Part shown: one piece after another, positions 45 to 6,032 of the stretch
How positions within the stretch are numbered: the first letter of the stretch is position 1
Layout of the letters: each line of letters starts with the position of its first letter
DNA from: a virus
Lineage: Duplodnaviria > Heunggongvirae > Uroviricota > Caudoviricetes
DNA length: 6,325 bases
Strand: one strand, 5' to 3'
IMG/VR virus record: IMGVR_UViG_2698536657_000011
The notes under the pieces: generated by a model
What the model was told of the DNA's origin: nothing
What the model saw: the letters and a program-made list of their open reading frames with translations, nothing else
The model's database searches: none
Program-made: the position numbers and the translations under genes

Positions 45-96
45 CTCCCCTTGATGATTTGCTTATTTTTCAATGAGTAAATCAAAACAAGGGGAG
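45..96. repeat. Imperfect inverted repeat just beyond the integrase stop codon: left arm CTCCCCTT-GA-TGATTT (45-60), right arm AAATCA-AAAC-AAGGGGAG (79-96), 18-bp AT-rich spacer. Possible att-associated site or 3' hairpin of the int transcript.
   Basis: Read directly: the 8-bp outer arms (45-52 / 89-96) and 6-bp inner arms (55-60 / 79-84) are exact reverse complements. Position next to the int 3' end is where P2-type attachment sites lie. Confidence 0.4.
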
Positions 97-116
97 CAAA
101 TAAGCACAAGTTACAA

Positions 117-1124
117 CTAATCGATGGACAGTTTATGGACACTTTCAGCCAGCGGATTAAAGCTGATTGCATCCTGTAAAAAGTCCGGCGAAAAATGCGC
201 ATACGTCATCGTTTGTTGAATCGTGGCATGGCCCAGGATTCGTTGTAGCGTAACGATATTTCCGCCATTCATCATGAAATGTGTAGCGAATGTATGACGC
301 ATGACATGGGTGGCCTGCCCTTTCGGCAAGTCCGGCTTCACCTCCTGAAGGATCTCCCGAAATCTGAGGTAATCAGCCTGGTACAACAATCCGGTTCTGC
401 GGGTTTTAATTAACGCAAGTACCGCATCAGAAACGGGAACGGCGCGAGATTTTCCGTTCTTGGTGTTAAAGAACATCACGCGGTTACCTACAATATGTTC
501 CCCACGTAAACCAGCTGCTTCACCCCACCTTGCCCCCGTGGAAAGACACAGAATGGCAACACGCCGCGCATCTCCATCGAGTCGTTCAAGCAGTCGTTCA
601 ATCTCCTCATCTGAAAGAAAGGCCATCTCTGTGTTCCTGACTTTCAGCTTACGTATTCCCCGAACCGGGTTTTCGTTATGGAACACCTCACCCTCAATCA
701 GCGAGCTGAACATTGCAGACAAGGCACACAAATCGCGGTTAATGCTGGAAGGCATTAACCCGGCCTGTAATTTGTCGGACCGGTACCCGAGCATAAATTT
801 TCGCGTCATCTGACTGGCACGAGGATCACCCATCTCACGGTTTATCTTTTCCAGTCTGACCCTGTAGGTATCCCCGTAATCCTGGTTACGACCATCAAGC
901 AGCCACCAGGCCTCTATCAGTTCGGATAACCGACGCTGATCTGCTGGCTTAGCCTGCCATGGCTTATCATGAAAATTCTGCAAAACATACCTTTCAAACT
1001 CCTGCGCCTTTGACTTCAGGGTAAAAATCTTACGAATCCGCTTTCCTTCCGTCCCTTGTGGCCTTACATCAACCTTATAACGTCCGTCTTTGAGTTGCTT
1101 AATCGACATGATTAGCCCCTCCAA
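117..1124 (-). CDS. int: Phage tyrosine integrase (site-specific recombinase), P2-Int-like, 335 aa
   Basis: Full-length ORF with GGAGGGG Shine-Dalgarno 6 nt upstream of the ATG. Catalytic-region motifs of tyrosine recombinases are visible (LSTGARWGEA; HVMRHTFATHF; LGHATIQQTMTYAHF with the terminal Tyr). Length and N-terminus (MSIKQLKDGRYKVDVRP) match my recollection of P2-type integrases. Sits next to the repressor, as in P2. Confidence 0.9.
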   Translation of the reverse strand: MEGLIMSIKQLKDGRYKVDVRPQGTEGKRIRKIFTLKSKAQEFERYVLQNFHDKPWQAKPADQRRLSELIEAWWLLDGRNQDYGDTYRVRLEKINREMGDPRASQMTRKFMLGYRSDKLQAGLMPSSINRDLCALSAMFSSLIEGEVFHNENPVRGIRKLKVRNTEMAFLSDEEIERLLERLDGDARRVAILCLSTGARWGEAAGLRGEHIVGNRVMFFNTKNGKSRAVPVSDAVLALIKTRRTGLLYQADYLRFREILQEVKPDLPKGQATHVMRHTFATHFMMNGGNIVTLQRILGHATIQQTMTYAHFSPDFLQDAISFNPLAESVHKLSID

Positions 1125-1178: not shown

Positions 1179-1520
1179 TCAGCCAGCATTGCGGCCTGAT
1201 CGGGATGATTTTTGGGTAACGTCGATTGAAGCCAGATCGCCCTCCGACTGAGAAGATCCATCAAGAGAGAGAGCCGGGGCAATTTGCCCGGCGGCAGGTA
1301 GCGTCTTATCCTTTAACAGCCAAAACATATACTTTTCAAATCGATCTGCCTGAAGAACCGACTCCACGATTTTAGCTCTGGCGCTCTTTTGCCCTGATTC
1401 ATAATTCCTTACGGTGGCCAGAGATAACCCTGTAATTTCAGCAAATTGTTTTTGCGTTAAGCCCTCCGCCTTACGTATCTGGCGTAATTTTTCCGCGTAG
1501 TCTATTGACAAGATAACCAT
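1179..1520 (-). CDS. Immunity repressor, P2 C-like, with N-terminal XRE-type helix-turn-helix, 113 aa
   Basis: HTH signature (LTQKQFAEITGLSLATVRNYESGQ) near the N-terminus. Downstream segment FEKYMFWLL...AGQIAPAL resembles the P2 C repressor as I recall it. Co-oriented with and directly upstream of int, divergent from the rightward early genes. The only upstream Shine-Dalgarno candidate (GAGAGG) lies about 11 nt from the ATG, so the start is less certain than the ORF. Confidence 0.78.
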   Translation of the reverse strand: MVILSIDYAEKLRQIRKAEGLTQKQFAEITGLSLATVRNYESGQKSARAKIVESVLQADRFEKYMFWLLKDKTLPAAGQIAPALSLDGSSQSEGDLASIDVTQKSSRSGRNAG

Positions 1521-1623
1521 TTGAGTATTAACCTCTCGAAAAAGATAACCTTTCGATTATCTTCACAACCCAAAACAAACCTTCATAAGGTGCAATAGGC
1601 GCACCTGTGCGAGAGGATAACAA
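1505..1623. promoter_or_regulatory. Lysis-lysogeny switch region: rightward early promoter candidate (TTGACA 1505-1510, TATTAA 1526-1531, 15-bp spacer) with operator-like repeats AAGATAACC at 1510-1518 and 1542-1550 and an inverted partial copy TTATCTT at 1557-1563
   Basis: Read directly: perfect -35 hexamer, 4/6 -10 hexamer, two identical 9-mers 32 bp apart, and a palindrome AAGATAA-N8-TTATCTT. A further GATAAC lies at 1616-1621 within the Shine-Dalgarno region of the first early gene. Position between divergent repressor and early genes matches P2/186 switch architecture. The leftward promoter could not be placed confidently. Confidence 0.45.
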
Positions 1624-2148
1624 ATGCGGGACTTCATTGCCGATAAAGAGTTATCTGACACCGATCACACAACTGGAGCGGCGTACATCAACGCCAATAC
1701 CAGTCAACAAGAAGCAACAGATAACAACGACGAACAAAAGCCACAGCGCACATATAAAAAAGGGGCAACCCTGCGGCTGGATGGCCCAATAGCCGGGCTT
1801 TGCTCACTTGAAAAAGGGGCCGCCTACATCGGATTAACAAAAACAGCATTACGCGCAGCTCTTCAGCGTAACCAGATGCCAGGACATAAAACCCGCTCAA
1901 ACCCTGAAGATGAGAATTCGGATGGTGTTTGGTGGTTTAACGTCAGAGAGTGGGACAAGCTGGCCGACGAACTCCCGGAATGCGAGCCACCAGAATGGCA
2001 CAACTGGAAAAGCTACTGGACATACGACCGCCAGAAAAGAAAGTTTACCCCAGCTGATAAGGAAGATTGCCAGACCGTCAATGGAAAACGGGTTTACAAA
2101 GGCAGAAAGTCAAAGCTGGAACAGAGCCAGGATGTAAACGAACGGTGA
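1624..2148 (+). CDS. Cox/Apl-like excisionase/transcriptional regulator homologue, unusually long (174 aa) with N- and C-terminal extensions
   Basis: GAGAGGA Shine-Dalgarno 6 nt upstream of the ATG. First rightward gene after the repressor, the position Cox/Apl occupies. Central segment AAYIGLTKTALRAALQRNQMPGHK...GVWWFNVREWDKL resembles the HTH and wing of Cox/Apl proteins. Family assignment is by eye, not by search. Confidence 0.55.
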   Translation: MRDFIADKELSDTDHTTGAAYINANTSQQEATDNNDEQKPQRTYKKGATLRLDGPIAGLCSLEKGAAYIGLTKTALRAALQRNQMPGHKTRSNPEDENSDGVWWFNVREWDKLADELPECEPPEWHNWKSYWTYDRQKRKFTPADKEDCQTVNGKRVYKGRKSKLEQSQDVNER

Positions 2149-2154
2149 TGATCG

Positions 2155-2550
2155 ATGAGCGGCAAAAATAAATCAGAAAAAACCGCAACCGTCCTTAAGC
2201 AGTTAAGCCTCCTGAAAGAGGAACACAAGGACGCCACGATACTGATGCATCTGGAAGGCTCACCGAAAATAACAATCACAACAACCTATAGCGAGTTACA
2301 CAAAGAGCTTGAAGGATTAATTAACTTTTGTTCAAAGCTAAAAGCGAATGAAAACATTGATGACCTGATACTTAAACCAGAAGCAGAGTTCGGACACTTT
2401 TGCGAAAGTAGAGAAAATGGATGCATCGGAATAATGCTATACGCAAGCCGTGGAATAATGATTAATCTGCCCGTTGAGCAGGCTGTGGATATATTCGGAG
2501 AAATGGCACTTAATAAAACCACTATTTACAAAAGAAAAATGCCGGAGTAA
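2155..2550 (+). CDS. Hypothetical protein, 131 aa, encoded in an AT-rich insertion
   Basis: Intact ORF with weak Shine-Dalgarno (GGTGA 6 nt upstream). Lys/Glu/Ile-rich, no motif I recognise. Base composition clearly lower in G+C than the flanks. Confidence 0.55.
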   Translation: MSGKNKSEKTATVLKQLSLLKEEHKDATILMHLEGSPKITITTTYSELHKELEGLINFCSKLKANENIDDLILKPEAEFGHFCESRENGCIGIMLYASRGIMINLPVEQAVDIFGEMALNKTTIYKRKMPE

Positions 2551-2563
2551 CCAGGCATGGTTA

Positions 2564-2758
2564 TTAGTATGTTGGTCCCTTAGAAAAGTTCCAGGAACTC
2601 TTGCGAGGGTATTTATGAAGTACTTTTTCGCGGACATCGTTAGCCAGATCTCTGATTTGATCGTGCTTATCATCAGAAGACGGAGGAACTTCGGGGATTT
2701 TATCCACGATTTCAATTACTGATTTAAGCATTTTTATTAATTCATCGTCGTAAGACAT
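2564..2758 (-). CDS. Hypothetical small acidic protein, 64 aa, convergent with the 131-aa gene
   Basis: Canonical AAGGAG Shine-Dalgarno 6 nt upstream of the ATG at 2758 (minus strand). Start chosen at this internal ATG rather than the track start at 2791. Stop codon lies 13 bp from the stop of the convergent gene. Confidence 0.5.
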   Translation of the reverse strand: MSYDDELIKMLKSVIEIVDKIPEVPPSSDDKHDQIRDLANDVREKVLHKYPRKSSWNFSKGPTY

Positions 2759-2865
2759 TGTTATCTCCTTTTTCTGGTTGTGTGGAAACACCAGAATACC
2801 ACGCGCCGGGCGTGGTTAAACATCCCGGCACTGATTTTCATTTAACTTAAACGGGGTTTTTCGAT

Positions 2866-4997: not shown

Positions 4998-5114
4998 GAA
5001 ACCAGAACATGCACACACAAAAAAACCGCTTGCCATGCCGCAATCAGTCAGGTTACATTCCCGCTGCACCTCATAAAACGGGTGCCGGGATTTCCACCCC
5101 GCCGACTACAAGAG

Positions 5115-5145
5115 CGCACAACCGCGCCAGCGGTTTTTTTGTGCG
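5115..5145 (+). terminator. Putative Rho-independent terminator or attenuator: stem AACCGC/GCGGTT (5120-5125 / 5130-5135), loop GCCA, then a 7-T run (5134-5140); outer arms CGCACA/TGTGCG (5115-5120 / 5140-5145)
   Basis: Read directly. Lies about 120 nt downstream of the stop at 4997 and about 170 nt upstream of the next start. The GC stem is short, so strength is uncertain. Confidence 0.4.
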
Positions 5146-5261
5146 TACTGTATCGCCACGTCTTTTTCGCGTCAGAATAATGGCGGGGCGTACGGGGCCG
5201 ACTTCGGTCGGGCCGGGATCTCTTGTAGCCGGTTGTGGAAACCCTGTACGTCTCGCCACCC

Positions 5262-5292
5262 TGAGTTTTCCACCTCCGGATGGTGAGTTTTC
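5262..5292. repeat. Perfect 9-bp direct repeat TGAGTTTTC (5262-5270 and 5284-5292), spaced 22 bp, flanking a small palindrome CACC-TCCGGAT-GGTG
   Basis: Read directly. Two-helical-turn spacing immediately upstream of the gene at 5320 suggests a paired protein-binding site. Confidence 0.45.
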
Positions 5293-5319
5293 AGAACTTA
5301 CTACAAGAGGCCAAACACC

Positions 5320-5547
5320 ATGGCAAACCGCAAACAACAGCGCGCCCGCGCTGAGCGTCTTCACACCCGGACTGAAATCAACCGCAGACTCTGGCGCGCA
5401 TCACGCGTCGCGCAAATCATGTACGTCAACATGCTGCATGAACACGCACACGCGCTGTCAGACCGTTACTGTGCCGCCGTCTTCAGCTACCTGGCGGATG
5501 ACCTGGCAGAACTGCAGGACCTTATCAACCAGCAACACCACCACTAA
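5320..5547 (+). CDS. Hypothetical basic protein, 75 aa, with C-terminal QQHHH
   Basis: AGAGG 9 nt upstream of the ATG. Preferred over the overlapping 206-aa track ORF (5009-5629), whose translation is Ser/Thr/Arg/Pro/Cys-rich and looks like an off-frame read of GC-rich DNA. Confidence 0.5.
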   Translation: MANRKQQRARAERLHTRTEINRRLWRASRVAQIMYVNMLHEHAHALSDRYCAAVFSYLADDLAELQDLINQQHHH

Positions 5548-5615
5548 ACAACATCCTGAAGCTATCCCGCACCCGTGCGCGGGAGGCTTCCGCACGTCTG
5601 TTACCGGAGGTTCTC

Positions 5616-6032
5616 ATGAAGAGCGTTAAGGGACTTTCAGATATTCAGGATTTTTTTAACTGGATGTGGGCAGTGGATCCCCGGCTGGCTTCCCGCCTGA
5701 ACGACTGGCACGACTATTACCGCCGCGCCTGTAAACGGGCCGCCAGACGCGTCACCACATACGGGGATTTCTCCTTCACCGTTGACGACCGTTACCGCGT
5801 GGACGTGAAAGGTGATGGTGATGGTTTTGGTTTATTTCACATCAACGGAACCGACAGCACCGCCATCAGCTGGTCGTCGTCAGAGATGACGCTTGTTCTG
5901 GAAATGACAACGCACAGCGTGGCCGTGAAAGGCATATACACCGCAGAAGACTTTATCGGTGAATATCAGCGCCTTCTCGTGCTGTACCGCGCGGCGTTTC
6001 AGGCGGCGACTGCCGGGGAGTGCGACGCATGA
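5616..6032 (+). CDS. Hypothetical protein, 138 aa
   Basis: Strong GGAGG Shine-Dalgarno 5 nt upstream. Stop overlaps the next start (ATGA at 6029-6032). Contains a GDGDGFG segment; no family recognised. Confidence 0.6.
   Translation: MKSVKGLSDIQDFFNWMWAVDPRLASRLNDWHDYYRRACKRAARRVTTYGDFSFTVDDRYRVDVKGDGDGFGLFHINGTDSTAISWSSSEMTLVLEMTTHSVAVKGIYTAEDFIGEYQRLLVLYRAAFQAATAGECDA

Follow-up and report, generated by a model that had tools for sequence, protein, structure and literature searches.

A long, 174-residue form of the P2-type Cox protein, extended by an acidic arm and a basic tail, in an Escherichia coli prophage

The stretch of DNA analysed here, 6,325 nucleotides in length and hereafter called the window, corresponds to the left end of an E. 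coli prophage of the P2 type (Peduoviridae). Its gene order is int, C, a 103-bp spacer and cox. The tyrosine integrase gene int (117..1109, minus strand) encodes 330 aa as annotated in RefSeq and its product shares 54% identity with P2 Int, whereas the gene next to it (1179..1520, minus strand) encodes a P2-type C immunity repressor of 113 aa with an HTH_3 domain and the GQIAPAL motif, a motif of P2-type C proteins that is described in PMC3448106. [quoted passage not shown] The prophage of E. coli JNEC-KY174, which adjoins dmsA, is 99.8% identical to the window and carries at the matching coordinates the RefSeq label 'Cox family DNA-binding protein'; in related phage records the gene is labelled 'regulatory protein cox', and phrog_23196 matches the 174-aa protein over its full length with E = 2.8e-95.

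P2-type Cox is the directionality factor of excision and also the repressor that, from the lytic side, acts on the lysogenic promoter. The position of the 174-aa gene is that of a Cox, as it opens the early operon and is divergent from a P2-type C that adjoins int. An int of ~330 aa, a C of 113-115 aa and a long cox, with 100-114 bp between C and cox, are constant across further E. coli lineages as well as Salmonella, Serratia and Yersinia, and the C-cox spacer of P2 itself measures 114 bp. Int, C and cox co-diverge as one module, and the chromosomal integration sites vary among the loci with the int-C-long cox order. A scan of species-representative genomes gave one locus, and the DNA used for comparison was collected by exact-protein look-ups.

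Other features of the window lie on either side of this module. Its first ~19 bases differ from the JNEC-KY174 prophage (L001 4550-4570), identity beginning at CCCGCAGGAGG, and this boundary may mark the att junction, or else the element may have inserted elsewhere or exist in another form. Just past the int stop codon there is an inverted repeat, CTCCCCTTG (45-53) and CAAGGGGAG (88-96), the arms of which change together in other loci (for example CGCCTGT...ACAGGCG in Salmonella L010 and L015); an int terminator and an att-arm element are both conceivable readings of this repeat. Downstream, cox is followed by a gene of 131 aa (2155-2550, plus strand), without a match in Pfam or PHROG and without a meaningful one in NCBIfam, that differs between loci, and then by a small convergent ORF (2564-2791, minus strand); no counterpart of P2 orf78/B was found at the position after cox. 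Further on, the Hfq-binding sRNA isrK (5066-5140, plus strand; Rfam 63.9 bits, E = 2.4e-12) and the C4 antisense RNA (5176-5263, plus strand; Rfam 78.6 bits, E = 1e-14) lie in tandem, in a gap that is unannotated in RefSeq, just upstream of a 'derepression protein' gene (5320-5547). The region looks like an RNA-controlled anti-repressor module of the P1 c4/ant type in a P2-type prophage, and the 206-aa ORF (5009..5629) that covers isrK and C4 is probably spurious.

The preliminary description of this DNA had assigned to the gene an ORF of 174 aa with a good Shine-Dalgarno sequence, and this is what we find: GAGAGGA (1611-1617, plus strand) is located 6 nt 5' of the ATG at 1624. The Shine-Dalgarno, the spacer, the ATG and the first base of codon 2 form the block AAGAGGATAACAAATGC (1611..1627, plus strand), which is invariant in the switch alignment of seven loci, unchanged at the nucleotide level although the operators of these loci differ. 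As an in-frame TAA is present at 1618-1620, a start of the ORF upstream of 1624 is impossible. The same description had proposed a non-ATG start farther downstream. However, after the 1624 start the window holds no ATG, GTG or TTG in frame before codon 85, which falls within the helix-turn-helix, and the single context that resembles a Shine-Dalgarno, at codon 50, is unconserved across homologues. An internal start near codon 50 would yield a Cox of ~125 aa devoid of the acidic arm, leaving the annotated N-terminus untranslated or minor, or, in a weaker version, giving rise to two isoforms. Such a start could draw on codons 45-47 (AAA AAA GGN), which make up an SD-like AAGGAG/AAGGGG 5-6 nt before codon 50, on codon 50 itself, for which 5 of 10 sequenced homologues have TTG, on an ATG at codon 52 that occurs in the Serratia homologue only, and on the near-neutral evolution of the linker (pN/pS 0.74). 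Yet codon 50 is CTG in the window and in L015, CTA in L014 and TTA in L010. As it is not conserved as a start codon, an internal start is not a conserved feature of the family, and a conserved start at codon 50/52 was rejected. The SD-like string is accounted for by the conservation of KKG as protein, neither the Shine-Dalgarno nor the ATG at 1624 varies, the arm keeps its negative charge, and with a start at 1624 the C-cox spacer already has the length of that of P2. Moreover, the frame 5' of the core is open in 50 of 50 aligned homologues and in all ten sequenced loci despite many in-frame indels. We therefore regard the internal start as very improbable, and a minor isoform of this kind might still be made; the comparison of sequences places the beginning of translation at the ATG at 1624.

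The assignment of the protein to the Cox family relies on profile, fold, key residues and gene order. Pfam Phage_Cox (PF10743) matches the full-length protein at residues 59-130 (profile positions 11-86 of 87) with 27.4 bits, 0.1 bit short of the curated cut-off of 27.5 bits, whereas residues 46-174 alone score 28.3 bits, above the cut-off, so that membership by this measure is borderline; 46 of 47 relatives match PF10743 on their own, with a best E of 5.7e-32. No NCBIfam model matching the 174-aa protein was found. The resemblance to P2 Cox in sequence is weak, with ~20% identity, a BLASTP E of 0.024 and, upon alignment of the clade profile with P2 Cox by hhalign, an E of 0.0036 and a probability of 9%. 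As sequence and profile searches of the PDB gave no match and no link to P2 Cox, that link was obtained solely by fold comparison and pairwise alignment. When the PDB was searched with Foldseek, 4LHF (P2 Cox) ranked first with both AlphaFold models, one of the whole protein and a second made without the N-arm; for the better model the match had a probability of 1.00, a target-normalised TM score of 0.71 and an rmsd of 2.2 A over 71 columns. The excisionases RdfS and Pukovnik Xis appeared lower in the list. The winged helix-turn-helix fold of 4LHF is thus present in the model, but helix 4 is unformed in the modelled monomer. Apl, the other protein named in the preliminary description, has no detectable relationship to the clade profile (hhalign E = 0.2); with a C-type repressor of 113 aa and cII absent, Apl-type membership was rejected.

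Alignment to P2 Cox, bridged through relatives of 100-167 aa, revealed seven columns invariant with P2 Cox, namely A66, G70, P86, P94, W110, W125 and W128, so that together with PF10743 at threshold the central segment does show, by formal alignment, the similarity that had been claimed for it. In P2 Cox, W81 and W84 of helix 4 together with P38 of the neighbouring chain build a helical filament, and the W81A and W84A mutants are inactive (PMC3936717). In BLASTP and MAFFT alignments the long protein has P86, W125 and W128 in the places of P38, W81 and W84. As W125 and W128 occupy the places of W81 and W84, the PPEWHNW motif is an ordinary Cox oligomerisation element and not an addition. The profile match, the match to 4LHF, the filament-contact residues and the int-C-cox synteny all bear out the Cox assignment, and we conclude from sequence and model that the 174-aa ORF encodes a genuine full-length member of the Cox family, the mid-region of which (~50-130) is the Cox winged helix.

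The core of the protein, a basic patch and the winged helix-turn-helix (residues 46-118; 1759..1977, plus strand), is covered by PF10743 and 4LHF and has a pN/pS of 0.19. In the AlphaFold models, strand 1 (residues 59-61) is followed by two helices (62-69 and 73-81), by the two strands of the wing (87-91 and 101-106) and by helix 3 (107 to ~120), in agreement with the helix-turn-helix and wing that had been placed at roughly residues 60-115. Core pLDDT is 85-92 in the model truncated of its N-arm, a truncation that improved the core and not the C-tail. The segment that follows, ECEPPEWHNWKSYWTYDR (residues 119-136; 1978..2031, plus strand), corresponds to the oligomerisation helix, as it contains W125 and W128, the counterparts of P2 Cox W81 and W84; it has a pN/pS of 0.11 and is non-helical in the monomer model.

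On both sides of this core the protein is extended. The variable acidic N-arm (codons 13-45; 1660..1758, plus strand) is predicted to be disordered, residues 1-54 having a pLDDT below 50, carries in-frame indels, differs in length and sequence among homologues and has a pN/pS of 0.74. In residues 1-41 there are 9 D/E against 3 K/R, with Thr, Asn and Gln abundant, and the acidic, Thr/Asn-rich character given to this region in the preliminary description is therefore correct. The basic C-tail, KRKF..KEDC..GKRVY..RKSKLEQ (residues 137-174; 2032..2145, plus strand), is specific to the long clade and conserved in 50 sequences; residues 137-166 have a pN/pS of 0.29, and W132, Y134, R136, F141, K146 and R161 are invariant within the clade (~131-174). 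Residues 129-174 contain 13 K/R against 7 D/E, and the tail is modelled as four short strands and one helix at a pLDDT of 51-58. The notion of a Trp-containing tail with a basic end accordingly stands as far as the sequence and the basic end are concerned, whereas its PPEWHNW motif is canonical Cox and not extra. A length twice the usual holds against P2 Cox (91 aa) and 186 Apl (87 aa) and fails against the family as a whole, which includes proteins of 119-148 and 173-192 aa.

The charges of the two extensions are a common property of the family. In a survey of 119 family members with clear landmarks, which are related sequences and not independent ones, the arm had a net negative charge in 98% of the long and mid-length members and the tail a net positive one, from +4 to +11, in 100%. 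Mean charges of arm and tail were -8.8 and +7.8 in the long clade and -3.5 and +5.9 in the mid-length proteins, compared with 0 and 0 in P2 Cox. As the arm is negative and the tail positive at similar magnitude, we infer that the arm counterbalances the tail; with regard to the roles of the tails the charge pattern is suggestive, not proof. A Salmonella subclade of 173-176 aa (P0045, P0051, P0054 and P0057; L010 and L016) has part of the acidic arm replaced by a Leu-rich sequence, MLNLLLDLL or LMDLINLLSAL, which suggests that the N-arm is a site of module exchange.

It had also been proposed that a Cox domain is fused here to extra modules. The N-arm and C-tail are truly extra, but WxxW belongs to the core, and neither extension shows an independent domain or a confident fold: when arm and tail were searched separately against Pfam at E <= 10, neither gave a match. 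With pLDDT below 50 in the arm and at 51-58 in the tail, a multi-domain fusion was rejected. A related possibility is that the extensions are separate modules with a non-Cox job, such as an integrase-docking tail (compare the C-terminal tail of lambda Xis) or an arm that serves as an anti-repressor or engages a host factor. The strong conservation of the C-tail within the clade, its modelled strands and helix, the LMDLINLL of the Salmonella 173-aa subclade, which resembles an interaction motif, and the co-divergence of int, C and cox would all fit this possibility. Against it, arm and tail are both without any domain match and the tail is modelled at low confidence; in addition, the full-length proteins examined among the 20 HMMER representatives are Cox-type, and no stand-alone arm or tail was seen among them. 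We consider such modules unlikely.

The switch region between C and cox contains the elements expected of a P2-type arrangement, assigned here as candidates. The candidate early promoter Pe (1505..1534, plus strand) consists of TTGACA (1505-1510), 18 nt and TAACCT (1529-1534); its -35 hexamer and T1, A2 and T6 of its -10 are unchanged in seven loci, and its position relative to the C start is that of P2 Pe. As a consensus promoter scanner called no promoter in 1400-2300, the assignments of Pe and of the lysogenic promoter Pc draw on cross-locus conservation. The direct repeats AGATAACC (1511-1518 and 1543-1550, plus strand) flank the -10 in a layout that matches O1 and O2 of P2, and are candidate C operators O1 and O2. 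They are locus-specific, other repeats being present in the Salmonella, Serratia and Yersinia loci, and this fits the expectation for heteroimmune C repressors.

On the other side of the cox start, codons 5-12 (IADKELSD; 1636..1659, plus strand) are invariant as ATTGC.G...AAG.GTTATCTGA and are a candidate overlap with the Pc promoter or operator. Synonymous divergence in codons 1-12 is 0.24, as compared with ~0.65 elsewhere. Within the block 1611-1659, invariant in the seven heteroimmune loci, there is an inverted repeat, GGATAAC (1615-1621) and GTTATCT (1651-1657). An RNA hairpin pairing the Shine-Dalgarno with codons 10-12 was rejected, as the pairs are all invariant, show no covariation and give z = -0.09. 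When the invariant block is read on the minus strand, it displays TGtTATCCT as an extended -10 and, 18 nt upstream of this, TCGGCA, a geometry that is the same in 186 pL, the -35 of which lies inside apl. What appears as a conserved N-terminal peptide may thus partly be the footprint of Pc or of an operator, the conservation of codons 1-12 coming from a constraint on the DNA instead of on protein function.

At the switch and at att, the RDFs of P2-like phages recognise direct repeats that follow one another at about one helical turn (PMC7498355). In the loci studied here the consensus of the spacer suggested a box pattern of (A/G)CAA at 10-bp spacing. The array of four such boxes that in the clade occupies -58 to -28, counted from the ATG of cox, is perfect in loci L002, L006, L009, L015 and L019, and is degenerate in the window, where the corresponding position (1565..1599, plus strand) reads CAA at 1566 and 1576, TAA at 1586 and CAA at 1593. 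In the att-arm region adjoining the 3' end of int (84..117, plus strand), candidate Cox boxes are approximately periodic (CAA at 88, 97, 107 and 114), at a position equivalent to that of the Cox site in attP of P2; at the equivalent att position the arrays are perfect or nearly so, with one abutting the 3' end of int in L009 and relaxed chains in L010, L015 and L016. The att array of the window is imperfect as well, and its sole perfect array is intragenic: five CAA boxes at exact 10-bp spacing (1695..1737, plus strand) lie in the DNA coding for the N-arm, at codons 24-38, and are a candidate intragenic Cox operator. Four CAA at exact 10-bp spacing were obtained in 0 of 200 shuffles of the window, the 1695-1737 array in 8.5e-5 of the codon-order shuffles, and in a scan of periods 10 alone gave a five-box chain while any other period gave 2 or fewer. 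The CAA trinucleotides of this array occupy all three codon phases. Among the loci examined the five-box intragenic array is present only in the lineage of the window. Taken over all loci, 10-bp CAA chains are ~40-fold enriched at att, spacer and the 5' end of cox relative to the rest of the loci, and the mapped Apl operator of phage 186 is picked up by the CAA-N7 pattern as well; a comparison of k-mers shared by att and the switch region was uninformative. We propose that the (A/G)CAA arrays are likely Cox boxes at the switch and at att.

These observations on the DNA raise the possibility that the N-arm, although translated, is no more than a passenger peptide, encoded by DNA that is kept and shaped by two cis elements, the Pc promoter or operator in codons 1-12 and the Cox-box array in codons 24-38. 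The low synonymous divergence (0.24) and invariant nucleotides of codons 1-12, the inverted repeat around the ATG, the minus-strand TGtTATCCT and TCGGCA with the geometry of 186 pL, the five-box array at 1695-1737 (p ~1e-4) and the linker pN/pS of 0.74 are all compatible with this. However, the intragenic array is confined to one lineage among the loci examined and yet the acidic arm is kept in every lineage, the charge of the arm tracks that of the tail across clades, and the mid-length clade lacks the invariant block past codon 3 and still has an acidic arm. A mere passenger role for the arm is, in our view, possible but doubtful.

The explanation we prefer, and consider probable as a whole, is that the gene encodes a full-length Cox of 174 aa with charge-balanced tails, which would act as excision factor and as repressor of the lysogenic promoter and would form filaments. 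Residues ~50-130 would form the Cox winged helix and two C-terminal helices, with W125 and W128 of one subunit packing, by analogy with P2 Cox, on P86 of the next. Cox would thereby assemble as a helical filament and wrap DNA in which direct-repeat boxes recur once per helical turn; the (A/G)CAA repeats at 10-bp spacing between the face-to-face Pe and Pc and beside the int end of att are the likely boxes. Occupancy of the boxes would shut off synthesis of C and bend att for excision. Judging by its charge, the basic tail of ~45 residues may add non-specific contacts along the wrapped duplex, and the acidic arm may compete with DNA for this tail, either within a subunit or between neighbours, a competition that would tune the cooperativity of filament assembly. 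A more far-reaching version, which we think has little chance of being right, is that tails and coding DNA constitute an extra regulatory layer, absent from short Cox proteins, in which the acidic arm is a DNA mimic holding the basic tail until a sufficient number of subunits has assembled and, in the lineage of the window, 1695-1737 is a five-box Cox operator. If true, the DNA-mimic arm would sharpen the threshold of the lysis-lysogeny decision and of excision, and Cox filaments would spread into their own gene, throttling early transcription or flanking Pc on both sides.

Long Cox proteins are neither new nor confined to this prophage. Escherichia, Shigella, Salmonella, Yersinia and Serratia all have forms of 173-192 aa; among 5426 complete E. 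coli genomes, 323 contain relatives of the gene, and phrog_23196 is a PHROG of its own with matching length. Intermediates of 119-148 aa are numerous and occur in the same int-C-cox context. A HMMER scan of 1.84 billion representatives returned 20 at E <= 0.001, which indicates that the subfamily is narrow. Homologues in related prophages do share the extensions, as shown by the forms of 173-192 aa with their conserved tail and acidic arm. Nilsson and Haggard-Ljungquist (2011, PMC3448106) report a 'group 2' of Cox proteins larger than group 1, with only six residues in common, much as the present alignment has seven columns invariant with P2 Cox, and the PhiECO5 prophage of E. coli UTI89, at the serS-dmsA site, which belongs to the dataset of that paper, has a Cox of 173 aa with 75% identity; the 174-aa Cox would thus appear to belong to group 2. 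In the literature we found no functional study of a long-form Cox. The length had been called unusual for a directionality factor and first early gene, but with a long form that is common, a PHROG of its own, a RefSeq name and a report from 2011 this view does not hold. Long-form Cox is a known, already annotated and uncharacterised variant of Cox, and an 'unusual fusion' overstates the case.

That a single small protein can serve as excisionase and as switch repressor is known from the textbook examples Cox and Apl, and to our knowledge all mechanistic work on them uses proteins of ~90 aa. A widespread clade of double size with charge-balanced disordered tails raises the question of how tails tune the cooperative assembly of a filament on DNA. 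The gain from the present analysis is modest: the annotation and the start codon are confirmed, the Trp motif is recognised as core Cox, and testable candidate operator boxes are provided for this group of prophages.

Among known systems, P2 Cox (91 aa; PDB 4LHF; PF10743) shares with the long protein the gene position, the winged-helix fold and the filament-contact residues, and has a similar spacer and Pe geometry. The long protein differs from P2 Cox by 48 extra N-terminal residues, acidic and disordered, and ~44 extra C-terminal residues, which are basic; its candidate boxes are (A/G)CAA in place of the P2 cox box. PMC3448106, which reports the group 2 Cox proteins, contains no analysis of the extensions. 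Mid-length Cox proteins (119-148 aa; Salmonella, E. coli, Serratia and Erwinia) occur in the same int-C-cox context and share the plan of acidic N-arm, basic patch, winged helix-turn-helix, PPEWHxW and basic tail, but their arm is ~20 and their tail ~22 residues shorter than in the long form, and they are devoid of both the YWTYDR..KRKF..KEDC..GKRVY..RKSKLEQ tail and the invariant block of codons 5-12. Apl of phage 186 (87 aa) has the same dual role and gene position and binds direct repeats at 10-11 bp in pR-pL and att, yet it is partnered by a CI-type repressor and cII, both of which are absent here. Lambda Xis, RdfS and Pukovnik Xis also have a winged helix and bind tandem repeats cooperatively in a filament-like manner, and lambda Xis has an unstructured C-terminal tail; unlike the long Cox, however, these excisionases are not switch repressors, fall outside PF10743 and have no acidic N-arm.
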